Source: Nanobdellota archaeon (GTDB lineage Archaea > Nanobdellota > Nanobdellia > Pacearchaeales > GW2011-AR1). From it: a DNA stretch of 64,000 bases. Location of the stretch: NCBI GenBank assembly GCA_030647125.1, contig JAUSKC010000013.1, positions 2,249-66,248 of the forward strand, read 5' to 3'. This document shows, in pieces, positions 1 through 62,387 of the stretch; within the stretch, counting starts at the first letter, position 1; every line of letters starts with the position of its first letter. Made by a program: the position numbers and the translations under genes. The notes under the pieces were generated by a model that ran no database searches, had not been told where the DNA came from, and was given only the letters and a program-made list of their open reading frames with translations.

Positions 1-723
1 AAATTCGGCCGGTTCGATCCATACCAGCCAATTGCGCAGCAAATCGATCTTCCTCCAACTTTAATAAATCGTTTCGATATAATTTTTACTCTGCGTGACA
101 TTCCAGACGCATCAAAAGATGAAAGAATTGCTATGCATGTTTTGCGCGAGCACAAGTCCGATACAAAAACAACAGTTATTCCAGTGGAATTATTCAGAAA
201 ATACGTCGCGTATGCCAAGCAAAGAATAAAACCCGAACTTTCTGAAGAAGCAATTTTAGAATTAAAAAAATTTTATGTTGATTTAAGAAACGCGCCTGTT
301 TCATCAGAATCAGGAATGCGTCCAATTCCAATTTCAGCCCGTCAATTAAACGCTTTGATAAGAATGTCAGAAGCAATGGCAAAAATAAAGTTAAATAAAA
401 ACGTGTCGAAAGAAGACGCCAAAGTTTCTATAGAAATTATGAAATATTATCTTATGCAAGTTGGATACGATTACGAATCTAAGACATTCGACATAGACAG
501 ATTTACAACCTCGATGGCATCCTCTCAAAGGTCAAAGGTCTTTTTAGTGCGAGACATAATAACTTCATTGGAAGAAAAATTAGGAAAATTAATTCCGGTT
601 GAAGAAGTCGAAAATGCGCTTGATGGAAAAATGACAAAAGCCGAAATTGAAGAGGCATTAACAAAATTAAAATCATCTGGGGATGTCTTCAATCCGCGTA
701 GGGGCTACGTGCAGAAAACTTAA
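1..723 (+). CDS. mcm: MCM replicative helicase, C-terminal part (5' end outside window)
   Basis: Frame 1 is open from nt 1 (KFGRFDPYQPIAQQIDLPPTLINRFDIIFTLRDIP, the MCM AAA+ arginine-finger region). It runs into listed ORF 133..723 and ends at TAA 721-723. Confidence 0.85.
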   Translation, partial: KFGRFDPYQPIAQQIDLPPTLINRFDIIFTLRDIPDASKDERIAMHVLREHKSDTKTTVIPVELFRKYVAYAKQRIKPELSEEAILELKKFYVDLRNAPVSSESGMRPIPISARQLNALIRMSEAMAKIKLNKNVSKEDAKVSIEIMKYYLMQVGYDYESKTFDIDRFTTSMASSQRSKVFLVRDIITSLEEKLGKLIPVEEVENALDGKMTKAEIEEALTKLKSSGDVFNPRRGYVQKT

Positions 724-803: not shown

Positions 804-1436
804 ATGGCAATAGAAACACAGCAATTCAAAAGAAACGTTGCATATAAATTCCGAATCGGAGATTTGCTAATTGGAAAACCTGTATTAGATGGAGAAAAAT
901 TCACCTTCTTGGAATTGGGAAACAAACAAATTGTAAGAGTAAATATCATTGGAAACATAGTAGACCGTTATGATTCTCAAGGCGAAAAGAAATACACTTT
1001 CTTAACTTTGGATGACGGTTCAGGACAAATTTCATTAAAAACATTTGGAGATGACATAGAAAAATTCAAAAACTTCACACAAGGCCTAACTGTTGCAATC
1101 ATTGGCGTCTTAAGATACTTCAACAATCAACTCTATATCTCTCCAGAAATAATAAAAGAACAAGACCCAAAATATTTACTCGTGAGAAAACTTGAACTAG
1201 AAAAAGAACGCTCTTCAAATTTCACACCTATGCAAAGAGAGCAAATAACCGCTGTAAGAGATAACATCTTGGATAAAATAAGAGATGCAGAAAACGCCGG
1301 AGGAATTGACAAAGAGGACTTGATAATGCAGCTCCGCAATTTCTCACCAGACATAATAAATCAAGAGATAAAAAAACTTCTTGAAGACGGAATTATATTC
1401 GAACCGCGCCCAGGTAAAGTTAGATGGTTGGGATAA
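804..1436 (+). CDS. OB-fold ssDNA-binding protein, RPA32/Stn1-like, with C-terminal winged helix
   Basis: OB pattern VRVNIIGNIV..YTFLTLDDGSGQISLKTF..VAIIGVLRYF, plus a C-terminal wH-like tail (LLEDGIIFEPRPGKVR). It lies directly downstream of mcm. Confidence 0.5.
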   Translation: MAIETQQFKRNVAYKFRIGDLLIGKPVLDGEKFTFLELGNKQIVRVNIIGNIVDRYDSQGEKKYTFLTLDDGSGQISLKTFGDDIEKFKNFTQGLTVAIIGVLRYFNNQLYISPEIIKEQDPKYLLVRKLELEKERSSNFTPMQREQITAVRDNILDKIRDAENAGGIDKEDLIMQLRNFSPDIINQEIKKLLEDGIIFEPRPGKVRWLG

Positions 1437-14162: not shown

Positions 14163-14528
14163 ATGGGAAAAGAAAAGTTCTGGGGGAAAACGGCATCTAT
14201 TGATCTTCATGGCTGCAATGATTTAATTAAAAATCCAGAAAAGATAAAGGAATTTGTAATTAAATTATGTAAAGAAATAGATATGGAACGTCACGGTGAC
14301 GTAATAATTGACAGATTTGGTGACGGTAAATTAGAAGGATGGTCGTGTTTGCAGTTTATAGAGACATCTTCAATAACTTGTCATTTTGACGAGCAAATGG
14401 GAGAAACAAACCGCGCTTTCATTGATATTTTTTCATGCAAGGACTTTGATGAAAACAAAGCAGTTCAATTCAGCAAGAGGTTCTTCGACGCAAAGAATTT
14501 CAAAATAAGATGTTTTATCAGGGATTAA
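14163..14528 (+). CDS. S-adenosylmethionine decarboxylase-like protein (SpeH family)
   Basis: IDLHGCN, FIETSSITCHFDE (compare ESHISIHTWPE) and DIFSCKDF (compare DVFTCG). The residue before the putative pyruvoyl Ser is Thr, not Glu. Confidence 0.5.
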   Translation: MGKEKFWGKTASIDLHGCNDLIKNPEKIKEFVIKLCKEIDMERHGDVIIDRFGDGKLEGWSCLQFIETSSITCHFDEQMGETNRAFIDIFSCKDFDENKAVQFSKRFFDAKNFKIRCFIRD

Positions 14529-21550: not shown

Positions 21551-22129
21551 TTACTTATGAGCATCTAACCCTAAATAAGTAACCAATCCGCCATTCTCTC
21601 CTCTAAAAAACTGTACATCATCAAAAAGTAAATGCATAGTAGATAATCCTAATCCTTGATTTTCAGGATAAGGTCGGGATTTATCAGAAAATTTATAAAA
21701 ACTTGTAATTAAAGGATAAGTCGATTGTCTAAACCTTAATATATACGGAACAAAGTCCTGATTAATTACTCCTCCTTCATCTCCAATAAGAAATAATGCA
21801 GAATCTTCAGAAATTTTGGAAGCAAGGAGAATTTTCTTAGTTTTATCTTTGTGATTTCCATGTTGGTATGCATTCCTTACAGCTTCATGAACTCCTGCAA
21901 GAATCTTTCGTGGAAATCTCTGATCTCTAAGCCCATCTCCAAATTGATAACTATGTGAATATAATCCTTTTTCAGAAGAGGGATAAAAAGATTTATCCTC
22001 AAAATCAGGTGAGATAACTATAGGTGGAATTTTAAGTTGTGATAAAATAACATCTTTAGTAAACATTTCTCTAACTAAAGAATTCCTAAAATCTAAATTC
22101 AAAAGTTCATTATCATGAATATGTCTCAT
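21551..22129 (-). CDS. GHKL/HATPase_c-like ATP-binding protein
   Basis: N-box HEAVRNAYQHGN, G1-like IGDEGGVI and G2-like NQGLGLSTM. No sensor or DHp domain is visible. Confidence 0.5.
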   Translation of the reverse strand: MRHIHDNELLNLDFRNSLVREMFTKDVILSQLKIPPIVISPDFEDKSFYPSSEKGLYSHSYQFGDGLRDQRFPRKILAGVHEAVRNAYQHGNHKDKTKKILLASKISEDSALFLIGDEGGVINQDFVPYILRFRQSTYPLITSFYKFSDKSRPYPENQGLGLSTMHLLFDDVQFFRGENGGLVTYLGLDAHK

Positions 22130-25384: not shown

Positions 25385-26533
25385 TTAAACCAACTTTAAA
25401 ATATTCAATAATTCATAAACAACCCCCGAAACAAAAATCAATCCTATAATCCATAAAATTATAGAAGGAATTTTAAGTTCATACTCTGGTTTTCTATTCC
25501 CTTTTTTGCGCGCACGCGCAAACATTAGCAAAATCAAAATCCCAATAGAACCCCCGGAAATTACTCCTCCAATAGATAAAATCTTAATAAAAGAATCAAA
25601 TCCTATAAAATTCAAAAAGATAAAAAGAACCAAAGGCAAAAGTGTAACATAAAGCCACGACTTTTTCCAACTCTCTCCGTAATCCAATCCAAACATATCT
25701 TTCAAGGCCACAGACAAAGCAACATATGAAGTCCCCATAGTTACAATTCCAAGAAGAACAACAAACTTCCCTAATGAAAAAGTGGATATTTCACTTACAT
25801 CATTTCCATAAACTCCGACGATAACAAAAGAAAAGACTGTATAAACAATCATTGCAATAACCAAACCTAATATTAAAGATCTCTTTACTAATCTTTCACT
25901 GCCTTTCAAATGCCTTTCAACTTCAGGCATGGCAGTAAAACCAAGATAAGAAAAAAGAACAACCCCAAAAGGAACAAAAAAATTGTTAAAATAAATTGGC
26001 TTAAAATTATCAAAATCAACTCTCGGAAGATTAATCAAAGAAACTATCACAATCAATCCTAAAAATACTATTGAGCCATAATCCAAGAATTTTTTCATTT
26101 CCCTGACTCCATGAGAAATTATAAAAAACATAAAAACCCAAAGTCCTATTCCGAAAAACAAAACATACTTTACTTCCCCAAAGAAAAGAAAGCTTAATGA
26201 TTCGCTGACTCCAAAAAGATAAGCCAAAACCGCGGAATAAACTTCAAAAAGCAAAGCATAAAACATAAAGATTTTCCCTTTGCTTCCCAAATAAATGCTT
26301 GCATAGCCAGTAAGCTGATGCTCTCCTTTTGTTCTCAAAGAAACTTCACCAAGCATTAAAAACAAAAACAAAACCATTAAACCAACAAAAAGAATATAAA
26401 ACATTCCTATAGCAAAGCCAGATTTAACAATTACTGAAGGAATTCCAAGGAAACCTGCACCAATCACAGTTCCAATCATAATTGCTACCGCTGTAAATGT
26501 CTTTTTGAAATCACTCTTTTGTTCCATCTTCAT
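25385..26533 (-). CDS. amino-acid permease-like transporter
   Basis: About 11 hydrophobic helices and a TAVAIMIGTVIGAGFLGIP motif. The start was trimmed to ATG 26531-26533 because the listed N-terminus overlaps tRNA-Arg. Confidence 0.65.
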   Translation of the reverse strand: MKMEQKSDFKKTFTAVAIMIGTVIGAGFLGIPSVIVKSGFAIGMFYILFVGLMVLFLFLMLGEVSLRTKGEHQLTGYASIYLGSKGKIFMFYALLFEVYSAVLAYLFGVSESLSFLFFGEVKYVLFFGIGLWVFMFFIISHGVREMKKFLDYGSIVFLGLIVIVSLINLPRVDFDNFKPIYFNNFFVPFGVVLFSYLGFTAMPEVERHLKGSERLVKRSLILGLVIAMIVYTVFSFVIVGVYGNDVSEISTFSLGKFVVLLGIVTMGTSYVALSVALKDMFGLDYGESWKKSWLYVTLLPLVLFIFLNFIGFDSFIKILSIGGVISGGSIGILILLMFARARKKGNRKPEYELKIPSIILWIIGLIFVSGVVYELLNILKLV

Positions 26534-26535
26534 AA

Positions 26536-26607
26536 CGAGCCCGGGAGGAATCGAACCCCCATCATCAGGGCCGAAACCTGACATTCTATCCGTTAAACTA
26601 CGGGCCC
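26536..26607 (-). tRNA. tRNA-Arg (TCG)
   Basis: Reverse complement GGGCCCGTAGTTTAACGGATAGAATGTCAGGTTTCGGCCCTGATGATGGGGGTTCGATTCCTCCCGGGCTCG. Anticodon loop TTTCGGC. Confidence 0.8.
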
Positions 26608-26696
26608 TTGCAAAAACCAAAAATCTAAACTTTTTAATGTTTGAGGTTTAAGATATTAATAAAATAAACTTGGTCTTTGTAAATATTATCTTTAAT

Positions 26697-29919: not shown

Positions 29920-30363
29920 CTAATTCAAACATTTAGGAAGTTTAACTTTATTTCTTTTCCTTCTTGTGATAAAACTATAAATTAAATCTGTAAAACATTC
30001 AACTTCTCCATCTTCCAAACTAACTCTTTTGAACCTTTTATTTGATTCTTCAACAGATTTTACTCTTTGTGAAAATCCTTTACTCAAATCTTTACCTGAA
30101 AAATAAGGTTTTTTATCTTTTTCAAAAGGAATAATCATCACTCTTCCTTCTAATGTTTCAATAACATCTCCCCTACCTAAACGAATTCCGTTATCATTAC
30201 TTATTATTACTGCAGCAAGATCGTAAATATTATACATAGAAAAAATTGTACCGTCCTCGCATTCAAAATAATAAGAATAAGGATGCCCATCTTCTTCATC
30301 GACAGGAAGTTTCTTATACAGAACGTAAGTGTCTCGTCTCACAAATGCCCAACAAAAAAACAC
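29920..30363 (-). CDS. hypothetical protein (147 aa)
   Basis: ORF only. No motif recognised. Confidence 0.4.
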   Translation of the reverse strand: MFFCWAFVRRDTYVLYKKLPVDEEDGHPYSYYFECEDGTIFSMYNIYDLAAVIISNDNGIRLGRGDVIETLEGRVMIIPFEKDKKPYFSGKDLSKGFSQRVKSVEESNKRFKRVSLEDGEVECFTDLIYSFITRRKRNKVKLPKCLN

Positions 30364-30393: not shown

Positions 30394-31437
30394 TCAAATC
30401 CCTTTTTCAATTCTCTCTCTAAATAATTCTAAATCCTCCAAGCGCACTTTCGCCCCGACGGCATCTTCATGCCCTCCCCCAGTTGCGCCTTCTAATCCAT
30501 CAATCGCTTTAAGAATAACCTTCTTAACGTTTTTCCCTCGAACAGAAATATTTGCTTTAATTCCTGTAACATAAACAACAATAACTATTTTTTCTGGAAA
30601 CAAGTACATTAATTCATTTGACAAATCAGAACTTATGCTCAAATCCCCTCCATACTGGAAAAACAAAATCTTATTTTCTTTATTGTAAACCTCTTTTGCT
30701 TTTTCAATTAATTTTCTATAACGCACCTCAATTTGGTCGAACTTGCTATGCATAGAATAATTTTTATTATTTGATTCTAGAACATCTCCCGGACTTCGCG
30801 CTTTCATAAGATATTTTATCATTGAAACAACATTTGTCGTGCTGTCTTTCAAGCCAAAATTAAAAATTCGCGCAACTCTTCCAATTTCAGTGGTGTAAAA
30901 AACTTCAAAAGCATTTTTTGTCTTAACTCCCAATTCAGGGAAGTTCTTTAAAAAATCCTTGTAAAAGGAAGGCATATAACTGTCAGAAATGCACCCTACA
31001 ACCGCAATCCACAAGTCCTCTTTTCTTGTTTTTTTAACAACTTGCCAGCACAAAGCCGTCGTCGGTTCAGAACTCTTTTTCTTGTTCAAAACTGGATTAT
31101 AATAATGCACAAATTCAGGAACAACAGAATCAACATCATGATGATCAATCCACACAACAGGGATATTAACTTTTTCAACTTCATCAAAAAATTCCTTTGA
31201 CACAAGCGGCTTATCAAGAATAAAAATATAATCAGCTTTTAATTCCACAACTCTCCTAAAATAATCCTTAGACATTTCCGGGAACGAACGAACTGGAACT
31301 CCCTTGCCTCTTCCTAAAAACCTTTGCAGCAGCAAAAAAGCGCTTAGTCCATCCGCATCATTGTCAAAAAAGAAAACTGGATTTTGCGCTTTGGCCAAAT
31401 GCCCGTTAATTTCATCAACTTGTTTTTTCGTTAACAT
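30394..31437 (-). CDS. stand-alone DHH/DHHA1 phosphoesterase (NrnA/Pde2-like)
   Basis: FFFDNDADG (motif I), WIDHHD (DHH) and ATGGGHEDAVGA (DHHA1 GGGH). The start overlaps the disA stop as TAATG. Confidence 0.8.
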   Translation of the reverse strand: MLTKKQVDEINGHLAKAQNPVFFFDNDADGLSAFLLLQRFLGRGKGVPVRSFPEMSKDYFRRVVELKADYIFILDKPLVSKEFFDEVEKVNIPVVWIDHHDVDSVVPEFVHYYNPVLNKKKSSEPTTALCWQVVKKTRKEDLWIAVVGCISDSYMPSFYKDFLKNFPELGVKTKNAFEVFYTTEIGRVARIFNFGLKDSTTNVVSMIKYLMKARSPGDVLESNNKNYSMHSKFDQIEVRYRKLIEKAKEVYNKENKILFFQYGGDLSISSDLSNELMYLFPEKIVIVVYVTGIKANISVRGKNVKKVILKAIDGLEGATGGGHEDAVGAKVRLEDLELFRERIEKGI

Positions 31438-32540
31438 TATATCTTCTTACCAACCATAATCTTTTCTTTCAAGCTGTTAATCTCTTTATTGAAAAATTCA
31501 ACCATCTCTTCGCTTCCAAAGATTTCCAAAAGCTCGTCGTTATCAGCTGCTAGAGTTCTGTCAAGCGTTTTGAACTTTGAAATTAAAGCGGTTGTATATC
31601 GCTCAAGCAAATTTGTTCTCCCCAAGATTCTCAAGCCCGAAGGACTGACTGATTCGTCATGCAGCTCTTCAAAAAGCATTCGTGAAATATTATTACTCTC
31701 GAGCAGAAAATCAAAATTAAATTTATCTAAAGTATTCGCCTTATTATTCCATTCATTTCCAAAATAATCTTTTAAAAGAATTTCCTCCTCTTTTCCTAAA
31801 TTTCCTGTCAATTCTTTAAGTCGCATACTTACAATCATCCCTTCCTTTCCAAGTTCAATCAAATATCTTTTTACAATTTCAGAAATTCTTTTTATAATTT
31901 CAAGTCGCTGCAAAACATTCGAAACATCTTCTATAGTTACCAACCCATTAATTTCAAGAATGTTAAAATTAGACATTAAATCATTAAAAGTCTCCCTTTG
32001 TTTTTCCAGAATTTGCAACGTCTCAGCCGCTCTTCTTAAAATTTCAGAGCTGTGATCAAGTTCATATTTCATATCACTATAATACAAAGAAATTTTATTT
32101 TTTCTTTCAGAGACAGCAATTACAATTGTTTTTGCTTTCTTCGCGGTCCTTTCAGCCGCCTTATGCCGCGTTCCCGTCTCTCTCGTCGGAATGTCAACTC
32201 CAGGGAAAAGCAAGGTATTTCCAAATAAAATTCTTTTTCCGTCATTGCTTAAAATTATTGCCCCATCCATCTTGCACAATTCAACCAACTTTTGCGCGCT
32301 GAATTTTGAATTTATTTTAAAACCCCCATCTGCAAGATCAAGAACATTTCCATTGTCAAAGACAATCAGCGCACCCATTCTTGCTCTTAACAAATCATCC
32401 AACCCCGTCCTTAATGAAGTTCCTGGCGCGAACATCTTAAGCACGTCGACAAAGTCCTTTTCTTTTTCAAAATTCTTAAGAGGATTCTCTGTAACAACAA
32501 TCTCCTGCACCTCTTTAATATCAGAATTATTTTCTTCCAT
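31437..32540 (-). CDS. disA: DisA-type diadenylate cyclase (DNA integrity scanning protein)
   Basis: GALIVF, ELCKMDGAIILSNDGKRIL and TRETGTRHKAAERTAKKAKTIVIAVSERKNKISLY, nearly colinear with bacterial DisA. Size 367 aa. Confidence 0.85.
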   Translation of the reverse strand: MEENNSDIKEVQEIVVTENPLKNFEKEKDFVDVLKMFAPGTSLRTGLDDLLRARMGALIVFDNGNVLDLADGGFKINSKFSAQKLVELCKMDGAIILSNDGKRILFGNTLLFPGVDIPTRETGTRHKAAERTAKKAKTIVIAVSERKNKISLYYSDMKYELDHSSEILRRAAETLQILEKQRETFNDLMSNFNILEINGLVTIEDVSNVLQRLEIIKRISEIVKRYLIELGKEGMIVSMRLKELTGNLGKEEEILLKDYFGNEWNNKANTLDKFNFDFLLESNNISRMLFEELHDESVSPSGLRILGRTNLLERYTTALISKFKTLDRTLAADNDELLEIFGSEEMVEFFNKEINSLKEKIMVGKKI

Positions 32541-32615
32541 AATAAATTCAATAGTCCCTTATATTTAAATTTTATTAAACTTAAACCTTAAAAACGCATT
32601 CTAACTAAAAAAATC

Positions 32616-33617
32616 ATGGATTTGAAGAAAAAAATTGAAAATGCAAGAAAAGCCGTCTTCAAAAAAGCTGAGCAAGTACAAGGAGTCAAGATTCAAGGCC
32701 CGGATTTTAACAAAGAACTTTCAACAGAAGAAATTCTCAACTCTTACGAAGGAATAGGTTTCCAGGCATCAAATTTGGCGAAAGCAATAAAACTAGTTAA
32801 AAAAATGCGCGAAGAAAAAGCGACAATCTTTCTTGCGTACACTTCAGGGATGATAAGTTCAGGAATTAGGGATGTAATCCGTTACCTCGTGCAAAACAAG
32901 TTTGTCGACGTTCTTATAACAACCACTGGCGGTCTGGAAGAGGACTTGATAAAATGCTTAAAGCCGTTTGTCCTAGGAAAATTCGACGAGCCAGGAAAGA
33001 ATTTAAGAGAAAAAGGAGTTAACAGAATTGGAAATATCTTCGTGCCAAACGATCGTTATGTAATGTACGAGGATTGGATAAACCCCCAACTAAAAGAAAT
33101 TCTAAAAATGCAGAAATCAGGCGAAAACATAACTCCTTCAAAAATTGTCTCGTTTTTGGGAGAAAAGATAAACAATCCCGAATCGGTCTATTACTGGGCT
33201 GCAAAAAATAAAATTCCTGTCTTCATGCCTGCTCCTTTAGATGGTTCAACTGGAGACATGGTTTATTTCTTTAAGCAGTCAAATCCTGAATTCAAAATTG
33301 ACGTAACGGATGATTTAAAACAATTAATTGATATTGCAATAAACGCTGACAAAACAGGAATGATAATTTTAGGTGCAGGAGTAATAAAACACGCTGTCTG
33401 CAATGCAAACCTTTTCCGTGATGGAGCGGACTACGCTGTTTACATAAACGCCGCGCAAGAATTTGACGGCTCCGACTCGGGAGCAACTCCTGAAGAAGCG
33501 ATCTCATGGGGTAAAATCAAAGGCAACAAAGATAATTACGTAAAGATCTATTCAGATGCAACTCTTGTTTTTCCTTTAATTGTCGCATCAGCATTCAATA
33601 AGAGTAGTAAAAAATAA
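32616..33617 (+). CDS. dys: deoxyhypusine synthase
   Basis: GFQASNLAKAI, IFLAYTSGMISSG and VDVLITTTGGLEEDLIK motifs. Confidence 0.9.
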   Translation: MDLKKKIENARKAVFKKAEQVQGVKIQGPDFNKELSTEEILNSYEGIGFQASNLAKAIKLVKKMREEKATIFLAYTSGMISSGIRDVIRYLVQNKFVDVLITTTGGLEEDLIKCLKPFVLGKFDEPGKNLREKGVNRIGNIFVPNDRYVMYEDWINPQLKEILKMQKSGENITPSKIVSFLGEKINNPESVYYWAAKNKIPVFMPAPLDGSTGDMVYFFKQSNPEFKIDVTDDLKQLIDIAINADKTGMIILGAGVIKHAVCNANLFRDGADYAVYINAAQEFDGSDSGATPEEAISWGKIKGNKDNYVKIYSDATLVFPLIVASAFNKSSKK

Positions 33618-54390: not shown

Positions 54391-57300
54391 CTAAACTATT
54401 TGGGTAACCGAATTCGTTGCACTAGAACTATACTCATTATAATACTTAATAACATTAGGGACATGAGTACTTTTTGCACGGATTAACTTTTCTTCCTTAA
54501 CCTTCCCATTTAAATTTTGTACACATTGATCATAATTAATAAAAGTTCCACCAACTTTACAATTACTAACAACAACAGAAGGACCGACATTGTAAGCTAA
54601 AGCCAAAATTCTTGGATTAGTTATTTGATAATTACTCCTTAAACAAGAAACATAACAAGTTCCAACTAAAATATTTCTCCTGTTAGCAATTCCATTAATA
54701 TCAGTCGTACTAGCAAATTGTGAAAGCAATTGCGCTCTGCTCGTAGACAAAGTAGAATAACCTATATTACTCAAATCAGCCGAACATGAAGGAACACAAA
54801 TCCCATCGATAGAATGAGTATTAAGATTAACAAAATCACTTAACATGCCATCTTCTTTTGCAGGAGTCAACTGCATTAAACCGATATCAGGAGTGCTTGC
54901 TGGATTCCAATCACTCTCTTGTGTTATTAAGGCCCTCACAAAATTTGCATTAACATTATATTTACCAGTTACTTCAATAACATAACTTGTCAAAGCGCTT
55001 TCAACATCACTATTGCTCGTAGAAATACGAACATTCTGACTATCAGAACTTAAAACATCATAATTTAAATTAATGCTATCAAAACTTGAAGTAGTTGCAG
55101 TTACTCCTCCACTAGTTCCTGTTTCAGTCGTCGTTCCGCTCGTCTGCGAATTAACAATCATATCAACAACTCCAAGCAAATCAGAATTTGTAACACTTGA
55201 ACTAAAAGTATTAGAAGTAACAGGAATATCTTTCAAATTCTCCCCATCATCAACTTTCCAGACCCCATCATAATAAAAATGATAACTTGTTGAACCGGAA
55301 GTCGCGCTAAAATAAAAGTCCCCTATGCCCAAACTTTGCGAACTTACAATTATATTTGCAATAGATTGTTTATTTTCATTAGTTAAACCAACAAAAGGAT
55401 CAGAAAATGTTCCACTTCCCGTAGTCGACACACCGCCGCCAACTTGATTTGTACTTAGTATGGTCTGTTGTGAAATAGCTTTATTATTTTCATCCTCAAA
55501 ATCCTGCGTCGCCAAAATTCCATAAGCTACTGCTCTCAAGAACAATATCTGTACCTTATTTGTATCCAACAACGATTGAGAAATTAAATTCTCAGTAATG
55601 TAACTTATTTTTTCAGCCGGACTCATTGCATTAATTTTATTCAATTCCATGTTTATATCAAATGAACTCGTCTGACCCAAAGCATTTATAACACTCGAAG
55701 ATAAACCTTGCAATGTATCGTTCTCAATTCCTATTCCTTTAATTGCTTGCTTAACGCTTTGCGTATCAATATAACAATTTAATCCTGCCGTCCCGCAACT
55801 TCCAACTTGAACCCAACGAGCATTTGCCCCTCCATCCAAAGGATCAGTTCCTTTTCCTGGGCTTGAAGTAGAACACACACGAACAATTCCTTGATTGTAC
55901 AATTGCGGATTCAAAACTTGATTCGCGCCTTCTTGAACATTTGGCTGAACTAAACTATAAACACTCGGCGTTCCTGAAACACACTCTTGTTCAGTTTTTA
56001 CTGTCTGCGTCGCTTGCTCTTTCAAATACTGATCATTCAAATAATTCAAAGCAAATGAAGTTGTAACTTTTTGGAAGCCGCAATCATCTTTTCCGTTGAC
56101 AGAAATACACATCTGTTGATATCCTGTCGGAGCAAGAATATCTTTTGTTTCTGATGCCGAGCCGCCACGTTTAATATAACCAGAATCAACAACTAAAAGT
56201 TGATTTGTCTGGTAATAAGAGCTTCCAACTGGCGCCTTCAAGTAAACTTGGAAATAAGCACCTTGATCATTTCCAGAATAAATATGATAAAAGACCTTAT
56301 ACTGCGAAGTTGAAGGCACTGTAGCCGTTGTGTAAGGAATTTCGCTGAACCATCCTTGATATTGATTTGGTGAATCAGGAGCAAGCAAGTTATCTAAGAA
56401 TTTTCCACTATTAGGGTAATTTGCCGACGCGAACGCCTTACAAACTGTGCTTCCAACTTCATTTGTCGACCTAGCTTGGAACGCCTTATACGATTGAGCT
56501 CCATAATAATTAACCATATAATCAATTGAATTCTGCGCATTTGTCCAAGCACTTTGAATTCCTAAATATTCTCCACCGCCATGCGACGTCTTTCCTGAAA
56601 CAACTTCCAAAAGTTTCGGAACTAAAAGATTTGCAACTGGAATTGATTGTCTCCACAAAAATTCACACATATAAATACTATTAATCTCGTCACAAATTCC
56701 AACAGTTCTCCCAGTATCTAAATTATCTTGCAAACACATTTGATAATCTTTCATTACAGAAATTAAATCATCAACTCCTGCTTTAACTCCAGTTAAACAA
56801 ATAGGAACTTTAACTTCCGGGAAATTAGGCAAGCAAAGAGCGACACTTCCTATAATTCCGGATTGAATAACATTATCAACATGGTACGAACCACCTAAAT
56901 CACATCTTGAAGATGGACAAATTACCGGGTCGCAAACATTAAATAATAAATTACAATTTGCAGGACTCATGAAATCAGTGCATTCAATATCCGGAACATT
57001 TGTAGCTGGATTTCCAACTTTAATTGTCTGTCCGTTAATAACAACTTGAGTTACTCCTGCCTTGTATTGTCTGCTAGCTTGAGTAATTGCATTTATCGCT
57101 TGCCTTACTAAACTTTGAGTTTGCCCTTCAGTAAGCCCTGGGAAAGATCCGTAAATCGCTCCAGTTCCAGGATTAAATTCTGTGCAAGTGTCATCGCCAA
57201 ATCCTGAATCAGCTTGTGCTCTCCCATTAGCACCAACATTACAAAGCAAGAAACTTGCAGGAGCTCCTGATTGATCATACGTCGCTGTAGCTCCTCCAAC

Positions 57301-60300
57301 ACCAGCAATGTTAGCCAAAGCGCCAGGCAAAGTCTGTTTAGTATAAGTATACCACCCATTGCTCAAATCAAATGGAACTTGTGCAGGCATTCCTTTGTAA
57401 GGTGCTGTTTCAAAATACTTTACTTGTGCATCAATAAATTTATTATTATAACTTGAACTATCATACTTTACAAAAACAGGATATCTTGATTTCACAAGCT
57501 TAGTATTTTCATCGCTTGCAGCTCCGCCAGCTAAATCATAAACATTATCTGGAACATAATTTCCATTCCCAGCATCCTTCAAACTGACAATATATTCTCC
57601 ACTACTTACAATGGCTCCTGCAACAGGCGTTCCAGAAATTATTCCATAACTATTCGCTCCTGCAACTGCTCCATTATAAACTCCTGGCTTCAAATCTTTA
57701 TCCACAAAAACATTAAAGTTAAGTCCGTTTATTCCTTTGCCCGCAGCTTCACTTACACTATTTGTTATCTTTGTATATGTCTCGCTTCGTGTCTGAATTG
57801 TTTTTAACGTCGAATACAAATTCGCTTTGGCAATTTGTTCTAATTCAGGACTAGGATTGTTTGCCAAAACCGCATTCCACGTCGATATATCTCGAGCTTC
57901 GCTTAACTGAACTTGCCCATCACTATACCCTTTTTGTGTAAAAACACTTTTTACTTCGGCAACATCAATATTATTATTTTGATTATTAGGATCTGTAATA
58001 ACTGCAGGCAAACCACTTGCAATTTGTTGTAATTGTGTTCCTGCATTGCTGTCAGTTACAGGATTTTTACTATACTCTGTAATAATTTGGCTTAATTTAT
58101 CAACATCAGTATTTATCTCGTCATTATTTTCAAGCAGACACGTGCTTACACTAGAATATTTTTTCTGGCTGAATAATTGTTGACATTTAGAATTCCATCC
58201 TCCAGGCCCAGTCATCACGTTTTGTCTAGCAATTGCTTTTCCTCCAGTATTGCTTATGAAATTTGAAACTGTCAAGAAAGCCCCCGTCGTCAAACACGCT
58301 GCCTTAAACCCTGTAACAACTGTTCCAAGATTCTTAGAAATTCCTTCCCATTTGGCAATGCTTTGATTCAAATTATTAATTTTAGATTGAATCTGATCCG
58401 GCGCAAGTTGAATTGCCCGCTTTTCAATTCCAAGTTTAAAACTAAAATTCGCTTGTGAATTAACATTATTTATTTCAGGAATTAAAGATACCTTTGCAAC
58501 TTTATGCAGATTAATTCCTGTTAAAATAATTGTTTTATCCCCAACAGCAACGGCTTTGTTCTTTTGAAGAATAAGATTCTGATTAGACGCAAATCCTGCT
58601 TTATCATCTTTTATAGTTGAAACAGCCTTAACACTTACAGTCGCCGTATTATCATCTAAATTAACTAACTGAATAAATTCGCCGCTGGAAGAATCTTCAT
58701 GCTTTTGTTCCTTTCCAAGTTGCACACTTTCACTCCCAAACAATATATTCGCGCTGTAATCATTCGGCGACGGCTCAACAACATCATTTAATCCAATTGT
58801 CGTAGCAACTCCATTAATCAATAATGTTTTTGAACTTGCTGCCCCATTTGACAAAGCTAAAGTGTCTCCGCACTGATTTTGAACTTGAACTAATAAAGGC
58901 GATGTTGAATAAAGTTGCACGAAACGTCCGCAAAGTTCAGTTGCTTTAGAATATTCATGAACTCCAAATGCAAGTTTTATTGCAGCAAACAAAGAACTCT
59001 CTCCATAAGTTACTCCTCCATTATTTACACTTCCATAAGAACTGACTATTCTATTATAATCACTCAATGCCTTAAAAAAATTGCTTCCTTGCTTATTGCT
59101 GAAATCAAATTTATTAACTCCAGTAGAATATCCCACAACTTTTAAATCACTTCCAAAAACACTCGTCGATAATTTAATCTTTGGATCAACTGTCTGCGCC
59201 GCTCCAAAAGGAACAACTTCTCCTCCCAATATACTAAAAGAAGAAATATCTCCTGCTCTAAATTTAGAATTAATTGTATTTGTAATTGTGCTTAAAGTTG
59301 AGGCCTCTAAATTTGAATTTGTTGTCTCATAAAGATAAACATACAAATCACCTGTGTTCATAGAATCAAGATTTGGTTTTCCACTAGCATCCTTTGAATA
59401 AGAACCAGTATAAACTAAATATGCATTCTGGCCATTTATAGAATGAACTAACTCGCCAACATTCTTCACAATAGGATTGCCCCCTACATCAAGTTTCACC
59501 GACGGACTTGTTATCAAATCAAAACTCTGACTTCCACTATCAGTTGTACATCTTACACTTACTCTCTTATTCAACCCTTGTTTTAGGACATTATAGGCCT
59601 GGCATCTATTTTCTGCAAAACTTTGTCCTTCTGACAAATCAAATACATTTCCATTGATTTCTACTTTTGCAATTGTGCCCGGATTTTGTATATCATCTAA
59701 ATGAACTCTCATATAAGCATTACAATAAAATCCTGGAATTGCAATCTGGCCAGAACTTGCTCCCTTTTGCAAAGTCACACTATAAGTTCTTTGTGTCTTA
59801 TCAGCATAAACAGAAATTGTCGCGTCGTTATTTGTAACATCATTCACTCTCAAATATCCTCTCCCATTCCAAAATCCATACCCAACAAAATTATTATTCC
59901 AATCACTTTCACTTAAAACCGGAAGAACGTATTGTGATTGACCTATGCCAAACGCTTTTTGAATATCATAACGAATCGTCGCTGTCAAGTTTCCTTCGAC
60001 AAAATCTGGCATTGCAGATTCATTTTGTTGTTGTTTCAAAACAATAACTGCATAACCAACATTGCTCAAAACAGGAGAATTTAATAAAGTCCCGCTTGAA
60101 TACGACAAAGCAGCCCTTGCAGGATAAAATCCTATTCCTGAAATAGCAGCCGGCCTTTGTGTTCCTGAAGAAAAACCAATATCCATATGCTCAATTGCCT
60201 TAACGTCAATTAATGGATTTATTTTAGTTGCAACTATCGGACAAAAAACAGGAACATTTTCTTCTTCTAGCAAATCGCTTCTTACCACCATTGGTGTACA

Positions 60301-60510
60301 TCCAAGTGGAGCAATCTGCAAAATAAAATCAGCCCCATTAGCATCACACCTTATATTTGAATACTGCCCGACATTTAATCCTTGAGAATTCAAATAATTA
60401 AAAGCATCCGGCTGAGAATACTGAACATAAGAGCTTGTATAACCAGAAACAAAATTAAATAATAAAATCCCATATAAAAAAATTGTTAAAAAGATAAATT
60501 TTTTATTCAT
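54391..60510 (-). CDS. giant secreted Cys-rich protein (2039 aa) with C-terminal lytic transglycosylase (SLT) domain
   Basis: Sec-type signal MNKKFIFLTIFLYGILLFNFVSG. Uninterrupted 6.1-kb ORF. The C-terminus carries ITQESDW (Glu codon 54916-54918), IGLMQL and LALAYNVGP, which are SLT motifs I-III. Confidence 0.85.
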   Translation of the reverse strand: MNKKFIFLTIFLYGILLFNFVSGYTSSYVQYSQPDAFNYLNSQGLNVGQYSNIRCDANGADFILQIAPLGCTPMVVRSDLLEEENVPVFCPIVATKINPLIDVKAIEHMDIGFSSGTQRPAAISGIGFYPARAALSYSSGTLLNSPVLSNVGYAVIVLKQQQNESAMPDFVEGNLTATIRYDIQKAFGIGQSQYVLPVLSESDWNNNFVGYGFWNGRGYLRVNDVTNNDATISVYADKTQRTYSVTLQKGASSGQIAIPGFYCNAYMRVHLDDIQNPGTIAKVEINGNVFDLSEGQSFAENRCQAYNVLKQGLNKRVSVRCTTDSGSQSFDLITSPSVKLDVGGNPIVKNVGELVHSINGQNAYLVYTGSYSKDASGKPNLDSMNTGDLYVYLYETTNSNLEASTLSTITNTINSKFRAGDISSFSILGGEVVPFGAAQTVDPKIKLSTSVFGSDLKVVGYSTGVNKFDFSNKQGSNFFKALSDYNRIVSSYGSVNNGGVTYGESSLFAAIKLAFGVHEYSKATELCGRFVQLYSTSPLLVQVQNQCGDTLALSNGAASSKTLLINGVATTIGLNDVVEPSPNDYSANILFGSESVQLGKEQKHEDSSSGEFIQLVNLDDNTATVSVKAVSTIKDDKAGFASNQNLILQKNKAVAVGDKTIILTGINLHKVAKVSLIPEINNVNSQANFSFKLGIEKRAIQLAPDQIQSKINNLNQSIAKWEGISKNLGTVVTGFKAACLTTGAFLTVSNFISNTGGKAIARQNVMTGPGGWNSKCQQLFSQKKYSSVSTCLLENNDEINTDVDKLSQIITEYSKNPVTDSNAGTQLQQIASGLPAVITDPNNQNNNIDVAEVKSVFTQKGYSDGQVQLSEARDISTWNAVLANNPSPELEQIAKANLYSTLKTIQTRSETYTKITNSVSEAAGKGINGLNFNVFVDKDLKPGVYNGAVAGANSYGIISGTPVAGAIVSSGEYIVSLKDAGNGNYVPDNVYDLAGGAASDENTKLVKSRYPVFVKYDSSSYNNKFIDAQVKYFETAPYKGMPAQVPFDLSNGWYTYTKQTLPGALANIAGVGGATATYDQSGAPASFLLCNVGANGRAQADSGFGDDTCTEFNPGTGAIYGSFPGLTEGQTQSLVRQAINAITQASRQYKAGVTQVVINGQTIKVGNPATNVPDIECTDFMSPANCNLLFNVCDPVICPSSRCDLGGSYHVDNVIQSGIIGSVALCLPNFPEVKVPICLTGVKAGVDDLISVMKDYQMCLQDNLDTGRTVGICDEINSIYMCEFLWRQSIPVANLLVPKLLEVVSGKTSHGGGEYLGIQSAWTNAQNSIDYMVNYYGAQSYKAFQARSTNEVGSTVCKAFASANYPNSGKFLDNLLAPDSPNQYQGWFSEIPYTTATVPSTSQYKVFYHIYSGNDQGAYFQVYLKAPVGSSYYQTNQLLVVDSGYIKRGGSASETKDILAPTGYQQMCISVNGKDDCGFQKVTTSFALNYLNDQYLKEQATQTVKTEQECVSGTPSVYSLVQPNVQEGANQVLNPQLYNQGIVRVCSTSSPGKGTDPLDGGANARWVQVGSCGTAGLNCYIDTQSVKQAIKGIGIENDTLQGLSSSVINALGQTSSFDINMELNKINAMSPAEKISYITENLISQSLLDTNKVQILFLRAVAYGILATQDFEDENNKAISQQTILSTNQVGGGVSTTGSGTFSDPFVGLTNENKQSIANIIVSSQSLGIGDFYFSATSGSTSYHFYYDGVWKVDDGENLKDIPVTSNTFSSSVTNSDLLGVVDMIVNSQTSGTTTETGTSGGVTATTSSFDSINLNYDVLSSDSQNVRISTSNSDVESALTSYVIEVTGKYNVNANFVRALITQESDWNPASTPDIGLMQLTPAKEDGMLSDFVNLNTHSIDGICVPSCSADLSNIGYSTLSTSRAQLLSQFASTTDINGIANRRNILVGTCYVSCLRSNYQITNPRILALAYNVGPSVVVSNCKVGGTFINYDQCVQNLNGKVKEEKLIRAKSTHVPNVIKYYNEYSSSATNSVTQIV

Positions 60511-62387
60511 TGAAACTCAACCCCCAATCCATTGTTATCATATAAAATATAATTTTCTTGTAACCGCTCAATGCTATTTGGTACAGGAAGTGAACTTGCA
60601 CTTATAACAATTTTATCTGAGTCCTGCAATTCAGATTGTGAAACGTAATAATCTTGCTTTCCTCCTCCAGATAAAACATTCGTTAAACTTTGCTCCGGAT
60701 AATTGATATCAAAACATTTTTCTTGTGTAAATCCAAACAAGCCTCCAACTCCCGACGCTGGAACATCAACACACTGCTGCTGCGTGCTTTCAGGAATAGA
60801 CATGCTTGAATTTTGATAAATAACCACTTGAATATTATACTGCCCTTCACTCAACTCAACACTGTTCTGTCTAGGGAAAACTGCAGTCACTGCACTTCCA
60901 TTTTCTTTATTGAAAGAAATAATTGCATCTCCTCCATAATCCTTTCCATCAACTTTTAATTCCAAATTCTTGCTATACAACTTGCTTAAAACAATATCAA
61001 CTTGGCCTGATTGTGCCTGCGTTACCACATACGTTCCATCTTCATAACCATCGGTCTGCGCAACAACTTTTCCATTAACACATTGAGGAATCTTTCCGTC
61101 CAAATGCCCCCCTTTTGTCTGTCCTATATCACATTGAGTTCCAAAACATTCGAACGAAACATTTGCATCAACCTTATTCAAATTGCTATCATAAACATTT
61201 ACTCCAACATTTGAGTTTGCATACTCGCACAACGAAGTGTCCGTCCCTACTGCTACCGCCCCTACTAAAGATTTCCGAGGATGATTTCCTTGAATTACAA
61301 CTGCAATAGGAAACTGGAAAATAGCGCCGGTAGGATCGTCATAAATCTGAACTAAGACAGGATATTTAACATCATAAACAAAATGGTACGGAACATAACA
61401 AAAGCCCAAAGCCCCCAAACCTTGTTGATTTCCAACCGGATCCGCTTGAAGAACATTCCCATTAGAAGGACTAACTTCGTAAACATGAGGCCAATTCTTA
61501 GACGTTAAGAATTTAACATTTGTATTCGTTCCCAAATCCTCAACAAAATACTGATCTTTCTTACTATTCAAACTATAATCTCCTCCCTTAACTTTAATTG
61601 CTACAATGTTCGCATCAAGTCCGTTTCCTAAATTTTCTAAGACGTCCTCTGCAATCCATGTTTTAGGTGCGCACTGAATTTCAACTCCATCTACCGGAGC
61701 ATAAAGTCTCAAAATATCCAAAGTTCTATTTTCTAAAAATAAATATTTCTGCTCATTGTTATAGACCTTTAATGCATCCGAATACATACTTCCAATGTTT
61801 GAATTAATTGAAATTTTATGGTTTCTTACAAGAACACTTTCATTCCCTTTTCTAATCACTAAATCCATTACCATATCAATTTGAACTTTGCTATCAGAAA
61901 TACTAACATCCGCTTTGGGCTTAGACATATTAATAACCAAACCATCACTATAAAATTCAGAAAAATCACAACTTCTAGCTCGTGCTTCAATAAATTTTGA
62001 TAAATCATTTTCCATACTTGTCATTGAAGGAACTTGTTGTTTCTCAACTCCATTACCTGAAACGTAATACCAATAAGGAATAGGGTTGCCAAGAAAATCC
62101 AACTGCGATGAAAAAGGCGAGAAGCGTGAGCCCGGATAAAATTGAGGCATATAAATATAACCGCCTTGACTTCCAAGAACATTAATTCCTGTCTTCAAAT
62201 CATTTTGCAAACAATTTTGGAAATTAGTGTAGGCAGGTTGCAAATCAGAAGGAATATTGTTGTTACTTACATCAGCAAAAAAAACAAAATACGCTATTAC
62301 GCCAGCAACAATAACTATTCCAAGAATAATAAATATTGTCGCCTGCGCCCTGTTATTTCTAGCAAAATCTCTCCCCTTTTCGAACAT
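60507..62387 (-). CDS. 626-aa surface protein with class III (type IV pilin-like) signal peptide
   Basis: The N-terminus ...ARNNRAQATIFIILGIVIVAGVIAYFVFF fits the [KR][GA]|Q + hydrophobic pattern. The remainder is beta-rich and Cys-containing. ATGA overlap with the giant gene. Confidence 0.75.
   Translation of the reverse strand: MFEKGRDFARNNRAQATIFIILGIVIVAGVIAYFVFFADVSNNNIPSDLQPAYTNFQNCLQNDLKTGINVLGSQGGYIYMPQFYPGSRFSPFSSQLDFLGNPIPYWYYVSGNGVEKQQVPSMTSMENDLSKFIEARARSCDFSEFYSDGLVINMSKPKADVSISDSKVQIDMVMDLVIRKGNESVLVRNHKISINSNIGSMYSDALKVYNNEQKYLFLENRTLDILRLYAPVDGVEIQCAPKTWIAEDVLENLGNGLDANIVAIKVKGGDYSLNSKKDQYFVEDLGTNTNVKFLTSKNWPHVYEVSPSNGNVLQADPVGNQQGLGALGFCYVPYHFVYDVKYPVLVQIYDDPTGAIFQFPIAVVIQGNHPRKSLVGAVAVGTDTSLCEYANSNVGVNVYDSNLNKVDANVSFECFGTQCDIGQTKGGHLDGKIPQCVNGKVVAQTDGYEDGTYVVTQAQSGQVDIVLSKLYSKNLELKVDGKDYGGDAIISFNKENGSAVTAVFPRQNSVELSEGQYNIQVVIYQNSSMSIPESTQQQCVDVPASGVGGLFGFTQEKCFDINYPEQSLTNVLSGGGKQDYYVSQSELQDSDKIVISASSLPVPNSIERLQENYILYDNNGLGVEFQ

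Follow-up and report, generated by a model that had tools for sequence, protein, structure and literature searches.

We investigated a stretch of 64,000 nucleotides from a Nanobdellota archaeon (contig JAUSKC010000013.1 of assembly GCA_030647125.1, positions 2,249 to 66,248), hereafter the window, in which a gene for a DisA-type diadenylate cyclase overlaps a gene for a DHH/DHHA1 phosphoesterase. An earlier note, made from the sequence alone, had described the two as a compact pair that makes and breaks cyclic di-AMP (c-di-AMP), with bacterial origins. Both open reading frames (ORFs) are present at the coordinates given there and contain all of the motifs quoted, namely MDGAIIL, TGTRHKAAERTAK and VIAVSERKNKISLY in DisA, and DNDADG, DHH and GGGH in the DHH protein; both are encoded on the minus strand, a detail absent from the note. 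The principal features of the locus are as follows.

31437..32540, minus strand: disA, 367 amino acids (aa), a DisA-type diadenylate cyclase of an archaeal clade (ORF listing)
30394..31437, minus strand: gene for a DHH/DHHA1 phosphoesterase of the RecJ clade, 347 aa (ORF listing)
31435..31439, minus strand: TAATG stop/start overlap leading from disA into the DHH gene (sequence reading)
32541..32615, no strand: AT-rich divergent intergenic region of 75 nucleotides (nt) between disA and the deoxyhypusine synthase gene (sequence reading)

The overlap proposed in the note is borne out, as CATTA on the plus strand at 31435-31439 reads TAATG on the minus strand, where the TAA of disA and the ATG of the DHH gene have one base in common. 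A TATA-like element, TTTAAATATAA, is located on the minus strand 19-29 nt upstream of the disA ATG (plus-strand positions 32559-32569), and probably serves as the promoter for a leaderless transcript of disA and the DHH gene; judging from this layout, the two co-directional genes are almost certainly co-transcribed. The window neighbours of the pair are a divergent deoxyhypusine synthase gene on one side, and a 147-aa orphan ORF followed by the prolyl-tRNA synthetase (ProRS) gene on the other. No RadA/Sms gene adjoins the pair among these neighbours, in agreement with what had been noted.

By Pfam, the window is archaeal, containing an MCM lid and winged helix, TFE, a tRNA-intron endonuclease, deoxyhypusine synthase and an archaeal-type ProRS, and it additionally encodes S3Ae. 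Close homologues of both proteins occur in metagenome-assembled genomes labelled Pacearchaeota, Woesearchaeota or Nanoarchaeota, and the host is a Pacearchaeota-like DPANN archaeon. Contamination or mis-binning as the source of a bacterial DisA was rejected, since archaeal marker genes flank disA and the arrangement recurs in 40 GTDB archaeal species genomes.

Conservation and divergence of the archaeal DisA

Three domains were identified along the DisA sequence.

32073..32408, minus strand: DAC domain, aa 45-156, with DGA at D92-G93-A94 and TGTRHK at R125-H126-K127 (Pfam PF02457, 2.5e-24)
31674..32060, minus strand: DisA-linker helical domain, aa 161-289 (Pfam PF10635, 7.8e-30)
31440..31658, minus strand: C-terminal five-helix domain, aa ~295-367, colinear with the helix-hairpin-helix (HhH) DNA-binding domain of bacterial DisA (AlphaFold model, alignment)

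By sequence comparison the 367-aa protein is a genuine DisA, colinear with its bacterial counterparts as had been claimed and with intact DAC catalytic motifs. It scores 333.4 bits against the NCBIfam equivalog NF010009 (cut-off 201), covering positions 4-354 of the 357 in the profile, and its alignment with T. maritima DisA (TM0200, 3c1y; E 8e-58) spans the whole protein. More than 100 homologues were found at 60-98% identity, several of them labelled Pacearchaeota or Nanoarchaeota, and the NCBI and JGI pipelines already label these proteins DisA or diadenylate cyclase. The DAC catalytic residues are not degenerate on alignment, with D92, G93, T122-G123 and R125-H126-K127 invariant in 30 aligned archaeal homologues. 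The RHR motif of most bacterial-type DisA reads RHK, a conservative R-to-K change, in all 30. All 30 homologues scanned match the DisA-linker family PF10635, for which the model of our protein contains three long helices (residues 166-197, 203-245 and 248-272), with block means of the predicted local distance difference test (pLDDT) mostly of 79-95 and a minimum near residue 165. The protein is very probably an active diadenylate cyclase.

Like the bacterial DisA of T. maritima and B. subtilis, the archaeal protein thus combines a DAC domain, a helical linker and a C-terminal helical domain around a DGA and TGTRH core. Unlike them, the archaeal clade has RHK in place of RHR and lacks the 'PRLP' and 'GIG' hairpin signatures; the disA gene described here has no radA upstream and a RecJ-clade DHH gene as its neighbour, in a DPANN host. 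Identity is 37-44% to bacterial DisA and 45-67% inside the archaeal clade. A bacterial ancestry, and with it the horizontal acquisition proposed in the earlier note, is plausible; the acquisition would be an old one, given the deep conservation of the syntenic block around the gene and this degree of divergence inside the clade.

In the C-terminal domain the archaeal sequences depart clearly from this family picture. No Pfam HHH match was found in the query DisA, and HHH or HHH_2 was matched by only 1 of 30 archaeal DisA (a weak HHH_2 hit, E 0.004) versus all ten bacterial-type controls. We compared the C-terminal consensus of 73 archaeal DisA with that of 36 sequences without a DHH neighbour, which are nearly all bacterial-type but include at least two distant archaeal DisA (L128 and L158). 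The bacterial consensus 'KIPRLP...LDEV.GIGEVRA', corresponding to two hairpins, becomes 'KTNLLE...F..E' in the archaeal clade, with the proline and the G-I-G gone. Five helices of the right size are nonetheless predicted at the C-terminus in the AlphaFold model, with pLDDT >90, and the archaeal clade appears to have kept the C-terminal fold and lost the HhH signature for binding the DNA backbone. Bacterial DisA is an octamer in which c-di-AMP synthesis is modulated by branched DNA. As the HhH signatures are lost, a corresponding regulation of the archaeal DisA by DNA is doubtful, and the loss suggests that the archaeal enzyme is controlled differently from the bacterial one.

The two distant DisA genes (L128:4866-6083 and L158:4986-6071; 37-40% identity) adjoin RFC small-/large-subunit genes, recognised from their sequences and without a family-library scan, which is our reason for regarding both as archaeal. 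The L128 protein has an N-terminal extension of ~90 aa. Neither gene has a DHH neighbour and both encode a degenerate HhH C-terminus, a shared feature that points to one archaeal DisA clade extending beyond its DHH-linked members.

Affinity of the DHH protein to the RecJ branch

The second gene encodes the following elements.

30763..31437, minus strand: DHH catalytic domain, aa 1 to ~225, with motif I D25-N-D27-x-D29-G, motif II D75, motif III D98-H99-H100 and motif IV D152
30691..30759, minus strand: inter-domain helix between DHH and DHHA1, aa 227-249 (AlphaFold model, mean pLDDT 93.8)
30397..30669, minus strand: DHHA1 substrate-binding domain, aa 257-347, with S298-x-R300-G and G321-G322-H323 (Pfam PF02272)

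The DHHA1 domain matches PF02272 with 31.4 bits (E 2.8e-07; cut-off 25.9 bits), and the DHH domain scores 27.6 bits in Pfam, slightly under the cut-off of 28.1. For both proteins of the pair, the domain assignments lie well outside what chance would produce. In an alignment of 30 family members, 70% identical per column, D25, D27 and D29 (within 'FFFDNDxDG'), D75, D98-H99-H100, D152 (motif IV, 'GCISD'), R300 and G321-G322-H323 are invariant, and those in the catalytic domain can be matched with the DxD and DHH motifs in RecJ structures from archaea. The family, a DPANN one, is discrete, comprising 248 clusters (50% identity) at E <=1e-30 in an exhaustive profile search, nearly all of 335-360 aa, and has members in at least 418 GTDB species genomes.

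The earlier note had assigned this protein to the size class of the bacterial Pde2/NrnA phosphodiesterases. We compared it with a set of stand-alone phosphodiesterases and nanoRNases (S. aureus Pde2/NrnA 8iu7, B. burgdorferi DhhP 9r7o, T. maritima TM1595 5o1u, mycobacterial NrnA 4ls9, D. radiodurans RecJ-like 8ioo, and GdpP 5xsi), some of which occur in genomes that have DisA too. The resemblance in size and motifs stands, as these enzymes have ~310-340 aa, the two-domain superfamily fold, and the DHH and GGGH motifs. The affinity, however, is with RecJ, and four independent tests agree on it.

First, the NCBIfam models recJ (best 5e-21) and RecJ_archaeal match all 30 members of the alignment, and RecJ_Meth matches 17 of them, while NrnA-type NCBIfam models match none. 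Secondly, the family profile recovers from the PDB the RecJ-Cdc45 protein of M. thermautotrophicus (6e-7), P. furiosus RecJ (3e-5) and S. aureus RecJ (3e-3), with DhhP (9r7o) the only NrnA-type match, at 0.04 and over the GGGH region alone. Thirdly, Foldseek searches with the predicted model (pLDDT 93.8) place RecJ-Cdc45 (4e-17), bacterial RecJ, MjRecJ2, GAN and PfuRecJ at 4e-17 to 1e-14, versus 1e-10 to 1e-8 for NrnA/Pde2 and the DrRecJ-like protein. Finally, a second structure search gave scores of 27.3 for the DHH domain of HAN, 27.2 for RecJ-Cdc45, 25.9 for the T. thermophilus RecJ core and 25.2 for MjRecJ2, versus 16.6 for TM1595, 16.3 for Pde2, 16.2 for DhhP, 12.2 for GdpP, 11.9 for mycobacterial NrnA and 10.9 for the DrRecJ-like protein. 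In both structure searches the closest structures belong to the RecJ clade, and not to the NrnA/Pde2/DhhP/GdpP type. On these comparisons of sequences and predicted structure, we assign the DHH protein, within its superfamily, to the RecJ branch rather than to the NrnA/GdpP branch, a grouping that the earlier note had itself named as telling against its proposal.

The RecJ-clade nucleases matched best (Mth RecJ-Cdc45, 7bhi; the P. furiosus HAN DHH domain, 5yh1; the T. thermophilus RecJ core, 1ir6), together with M. jannaschii RecJ2 (7ykv) and GAN (5ghr), have in common with our protein motifs I-IV, the 'D-x-D-x-DG' form of motif I, the GGGH motif and the long inter-domain helix. A long connecting helix between the two domains is a hallmark of the RecJ core. 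We found in the DHH protein none of the accessory domains of this clade, that is, the OB fold of bacterial RecJ, the CMG-interacting insertion of GAN/Cdc45, or the S1, OB and zinc-finger domains of HAN. The protein consists of DHH, linker helix and DHHA1 only, and falls ~100 aa short of the RecJ, GAN and HAN structures known from archaea (431-470 aa).

Replicative orthologues of archaeal RecJ/GAN are found in an S15/S3Ae/Pcc1 neighbourhood (PMC3307487). The DHH gene is not in this context, as its neighbours across 160 loci are deoxyhypusine synthase or DisA, and ProRS; within the window, S3Ae is ~31 kb from the DHH gene and no DHH gene adjoins it. A family hidden Markov model (HMM) and a motif scan, run over all 147 ORFs of the window, revealed no further DHH or RecJ gene, nor was a RecJ found beyond S3Ae at the window end, in 1.6 kb of extra sequence reached via the identical-protein contig L161. 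At its other end the window opens inside an MCM gene (133-723, plus strand; AAA-lid and archaeal winged helix), followed by an OB-fold protein that is possibly RPA-like (804-1436, plus strand). The positions of these two genes put replication genes ~30 kb from the RecJ-like gene, and not adjacent to it.

Distribution of the disA-DHH arrangement

We examined the pairing from both directions. Starting from the DHH protein, we found a relative in 418 GTDB species genomes, took the best 80 loci, and obtained 75 informative ones. In 40 of these a DisA gene immediately precedes the DHH gene in the same orientation; in the other 35 (47%) DisA is absent within 5 kb. Among the 37 loci lacking a DisA match, the gene upstream on the same strand encodes deoxyhypusine synthase in 21 and a PLP-decarboxylase-like protein in 7. 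Starting from DisA, we searched for archaeal DisA in metagenomes and binned the loci by identity to the query. A DHH gene lies downstream of DisA in 32/34 loci at >=45% identity, in 3/22 loci at 40-45%, and in 0/14 loci at <40%, the last being nearly all bacterial-type. Where a genome of this clade has DisA, the gene nearly always directly precedes the DHH gene; the latter, in contrast, does not need DisA. One of the two exceptions is L084:124-1227, where a 100-aa membrane-like ORF, and no DHH gene, separates ProRS from a DisA 61% identical to the query; the DHH gene has apparently been lost or relocated at this locus.

The DHH protein is as well conserved where DisA is missing. Its catalytic residues are >=97% conserved in 102 sequences, whether DisA-positive or DisA-negative, as are S298-x-R300-G and GGH, and it is 59-65% identical to the query in either set. 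No residue signature separates the two sets among the 102 sequences, the largest difference in distribution being 0.57, at variable surface-type positions. In a neighbour-joining tree of the 102 DHH proteins, DisA-less loci are scattered at at least 8 places among DisA-positive ones, as would be expected if disA and the DHH gene had been paired ancestrally and DisA had then been lost repeatedly. As 35 of the 75 related species genomes keep a catalytically intact DHH gene without DisA within 5 kb, the two genes do not appear to form a dedicated module, and the make-and-break pair of the earlier note was not upheld.

Neither the overlap nor the adjacency of the two genes distinguishes them in these genomes. 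Of 60 related loci, 23 have disA and the DHH gene separated by -1 to 30 nt and a further 23 by 31-100 nt, so that the gap is at most 100 nt in 46. In relatives without DisA, the DHH start lies -20 to +38 nt from the end of an unrelated upstream gene in 24 of 36 loci, and because these junctions are equally tight the stop/start overlap is nothing special in such compact genomes. A whole block is conserved, in the order TFE, rhomboid, SpoIIM, deoxyhypusine synthase or Nre, DisA, DHH and ProRS, and this order is partly kept in deep-branching loci; where DisA is absent, the DHH gene adjoins deoxyhypusine synthase just as tightly. For both reasons, adjacency is weak evidence of a shared function. 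We also considered whether the disA-DHH linkage outlasts those of its neighbours and so reflects selection; this argument is weakened by the deep-branching loci, in which TFE, rhomboid and SpoIIM stay upstream and, in some, ProRS is retained as well.

Several further observations concern this block. An Nre gene (Pfam Nre_N and Nre_C, 6e-80) is upstream of DisA in the deeper-branching loci L105, L107, L109-L112 and L019, in the slot taken by deoxyhypusine synthase elsewhere, and an ATP-dependent DNA ligase gene is the divergent neighbour of DisA at L117. The PLP-dependent decarboxylase-like genes directly upstream of the DHH gene are those of L002, L040, L041, L053, L070, L076 and L078, assigned by sequence appearance only. 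Genes of polyamine and hypusine metabolism recur around the locus throughout the clade, namely S-adenosylmethionine decarboxylase (window 14163-14528, plus strand), deoxyhypusine synthase and, in those seven loci, the decarboxylase-like gene. Deoxyhypusine synthase (32616-33617, plus strand) is divergent from disA in the window and in L018, L066 and L100, whose deoxyhypusine synthases are 67-71% identical, and is co-directional with disA and the DHH gene in most related loci, which points to a local inversion in this sublineage. On the other side of the pair, the 147-aa ORF (29920-30363, minus strand) has no Pfam or NCBIfam match and no tblastn match in 160 related loci, where its position is usually occupied by ~400 nt or by another small ORF. 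It is either lineage-specific or no gene, and we rejected it as a third operon member as it has neither a family match nor a homologue in those loci.

The arrangement resembles the bacterial radA-disA operon in that DisA is co-transcribed, here presumably, with a protein of DNA metabolism, and that the layout is conserved over a large clade. It differs in that the partner is a RecJ-clade phosphoesterase downstream, not a RadA/Sms helicase upstream, and in that about half of the genomes have this partner but no adjoining DisA.

The earlier note had also suggested a search for c-di-AMP receptors, which we made over the 64-kb window of the genome. RCK_C, CBS and PstA/DarA domains were not found in ~37 of its proteins, nor was a ydaO riboswitch found with Rfam.

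Functional interpretation of the locus

We favour, with a probability of roughly 0.55, the reading that an optional and anciently acquired DisA is co-transcribed with a core phosphoesterase of the RecJ clade, and that the two do not constitute a dedicated pair for making and breaking c-di-AMP. DisA would condense two ATP into c-di-AMP by means of its DGA and RHK motifs. The DHH protein would be a compact two-metal phosphoesterase of the RecJ/Cdc45/HAN branch, in which the metal ions would be coordinated by D25, D27, D75, H99, H100 and D152, and the substrate would be bound by R300 and the GGGH of the DHHA1 domain. Its characterised archaeal relatives, HAN, GAN and RecJ1/2, are exonucleases on single-stranded DNA or RNA (PMC6158738, PMC5615345); by analogy, the protein is most likely an exonuclease of this kind that trims single-stranded DNA or RNA ends in replication, repair or RNA turnover. 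Its gene would be a constant core gene of the lineage. DisA, in contrast, would be an accessory gene, acquired early, inserted just upstream of the DHH gene, inherited vertically, and lost repeatedly.

Several points weigh against this reading. The activities of DisA, of the DHH protein and of all members of its family are deduced from sequence. The RecJ assignment holds at the level of the clade only, as the scores of the DHH protein are far under the curated cut-offs (recJ TIGR00644, 49.6 bits versus 396.9; RecJ_archaeal NF053576, 33.7 versus 360). Loci were counted as DisA-less on the basis of 5 kb, and a DisA or another cyclase might be encoded elsewhere in those genomes. Likewise, the search for other RecJ genes covered the window and 1.6 kb more, and a separate GAN/Cdc45 orthologue may be present elsewhere. 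Finally, the near-constant position of DisA beside the DHH gene in this clade would be expected too if the DHH enzyme turned over c-di-AMP or pApA.

This last point leads to a rival reading that we consider possible, if on balance unlikely, in which the DHH/DHHA1 protein is a c-di-AMP and/or pApA phosphodiesterase that balances DisA, perhaps with a housekeeping nanoRNase role as well. Such a dual role would explain why the DHH gene persists where DisA has been lost, and bacterial NrnA/Pde2 do combine nanoRNase activity with pApA hydrolysis (PMC11229311, PMC9779919). The operon arrangement with its short or overlapping junctions, the presence of the DHH gene downstream of nearly all archaeal DisA at >=45% identity, and the intact DHH and GGGH catalytic motifs are consistent with it. 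A 2023 review describes the enzymes that degrade c-di-AMP in archaea, and the proteins that bind it, as unknown, and proposes DHH/DHHA1 proteins as candidates for degradation (PMC10249747). Those candidates, however, are the NrnA-like proteins of arCOG01566, in another branch of the superfamily, whereas the HMM, profile and two structure searches put our protein in the RecJ clade and not in the NrnA/GdpP clade. Bona fide RecJ is reported to be without c-di-AMP activity and the NrnA-like DrRecJ-like protein to be active (PMC11229311), and we found no report of c-di-AMP or pApA phosphodiesterase activity for RecJ-clade proteins in the literature searched. The 47% of loci without DisA, in which conservation of the DHH protein is not relaxed, and the conserved order of TFE, rhomboid, SpoIIM and ProRS, with an equally tight deoxyhypusine synthase junction where DisA is absent, further argue against it. 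A phosphodiesterase role of the DHH protein is accordingly possible but unsupported.

A broader idea, to which we give less credence still, is that the archaeal DisA gave up its own HhH sensor and works through its RecJ-like neighbour. This might take either of two forms, which we grade jointly as speculative. The nuclease could read DNA ends for the cyclase, in a new archaeal c-di-AMP checkpoint for replication stress or DNA damage, or a RecJ-branch enzyme could have been recruited as the first archaeal c-di-AMP/pApA phosphodiesterase.

We regard as decidedly unlikely the more specific proposal that DisA is joined with the RecJ-like nuclease, physically or in its regulation, in a module for DNA damage and replication stress, an archaeal counterpart of DisA-RadA in which the nuclease would supply the nucleic-acid contact lost with the degenerate HhH domain and the c-di-AMP output would report stalled forks or resected ends. 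It would fit the loss of HhH signatures in the archaeal DisA examined, including two distant lineages, the structural proximity of the DHH protein to the repair and replication nucleases HAN, RecJ-Cdc45 and RecJ, and the repair-associated Nre or DNA ligase gene immediately upstream of DisA in deeper-branching loci. Bacterial DisA is, moreover, regulated by repair partners at branched DNA (PMC8645862, PMC8227628). The interaction between DisA and the DHH protein is nevertheless hypothetical, no residue signature splits the DHH proteins of genomes with and without DisA, the distant archaeal DisA of L128 and L158 have no DHH neighbour, and the Nre and ligase adjacencies may be mere block synteny.

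Least probable of all is that the DHH protein is a small-molecule phosphatase unconnected to DisA, such as the pAp phosphatase MtPAPP of Methanothermococcus thermolithotrophicus (8a8k), with the adjacency an inherited gene order: retention of the DHH gene without DisA and the strongly conserved surrounding gene order would agree with this, but profile searches detected no sequence relationship to MtPAPP and recovered RecJ proteins instead, the protein resembles RecJ in motif I (D-x-D-x-DG) and in its long linker helix, MtPAPP has, per its authors, no detectable similarity to other DHH proteins beyond the DHH motif, where our family resembles RecJ, and its gene lies in a different context, a sulfate-assimilation cluster (PMC10322725).

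The reading of an optional DisA beside a core RecJ-clade enzyme bears on c-di-AMP signalling in archaea, which has been studied only for the DacZ and CdaZ cyclases of Euryarchaeota; these are the archaeal cyclases characterised so far (PMC6741144, PMC10249747), much as the earlier note had indicated in speaking of the DacZ type. A large DPANN clade with a bacterial-type DisA extends this messenger to ultrasmall and probably symbiotic archaea. What is new here is a DisA clade whose C-terminal domain is modified and which has acquired an unfamiliar conserved neighbour gene; we found no papers on DisA in DPANN archaea or on the ~345-aa DHH family in the literature searched, although an earlier mention in cyclase surveys is possible. 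That family, an uncharacterised one in the RecJ clade, may represent a minimal archaeal nuclease of RecJ/Cdc45 type or an unexpected phosphodiesterase, and the locus offers a concrete candidate for an open question in archaeal c-di-AMP biology, even though the claim of a partner of Pde2/NrnA type is unsupported. It also provides a caution that, in compact and strongly syntenic genomes, stop/start overlaps and conserved adjacency alone do not indicate a common pathway.

Other features of the window

We additionally noted three features elsewhere in the window, all on the minus strand. A listed 411-aa ORF with a TTG start (25385-26620) crosses a tRNA gene (26536-26607) at its 5' end; the amino-acid permease that it encodes (Trp_Tyr_perm/AA_permease_2) probably starts at an internal MKMEQKS. 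A 2039-aa ORF with an N-terminal hydrophobic segment (54391-60510) overlaps by 4 nt a 626-aa ORF (60507-62387) that has no Pfam match, and the two may be giant surface proteins as reported for Pacearchaeota and Woesearchaeota (PMC8204110). Finally, a 192-aa protein (21551-22129) contains HATPase_c_2, a histidine-kinase-like ATPase domain of the kind found in anti-sigma-factor kinases; such a bacterial-type signalling domain is unusual in a reduced archaeon. The gene for this protein is situated amid apparent amidotransferase genes of GatD/GatE/GatB type, as judged by their N-terminal sequences.

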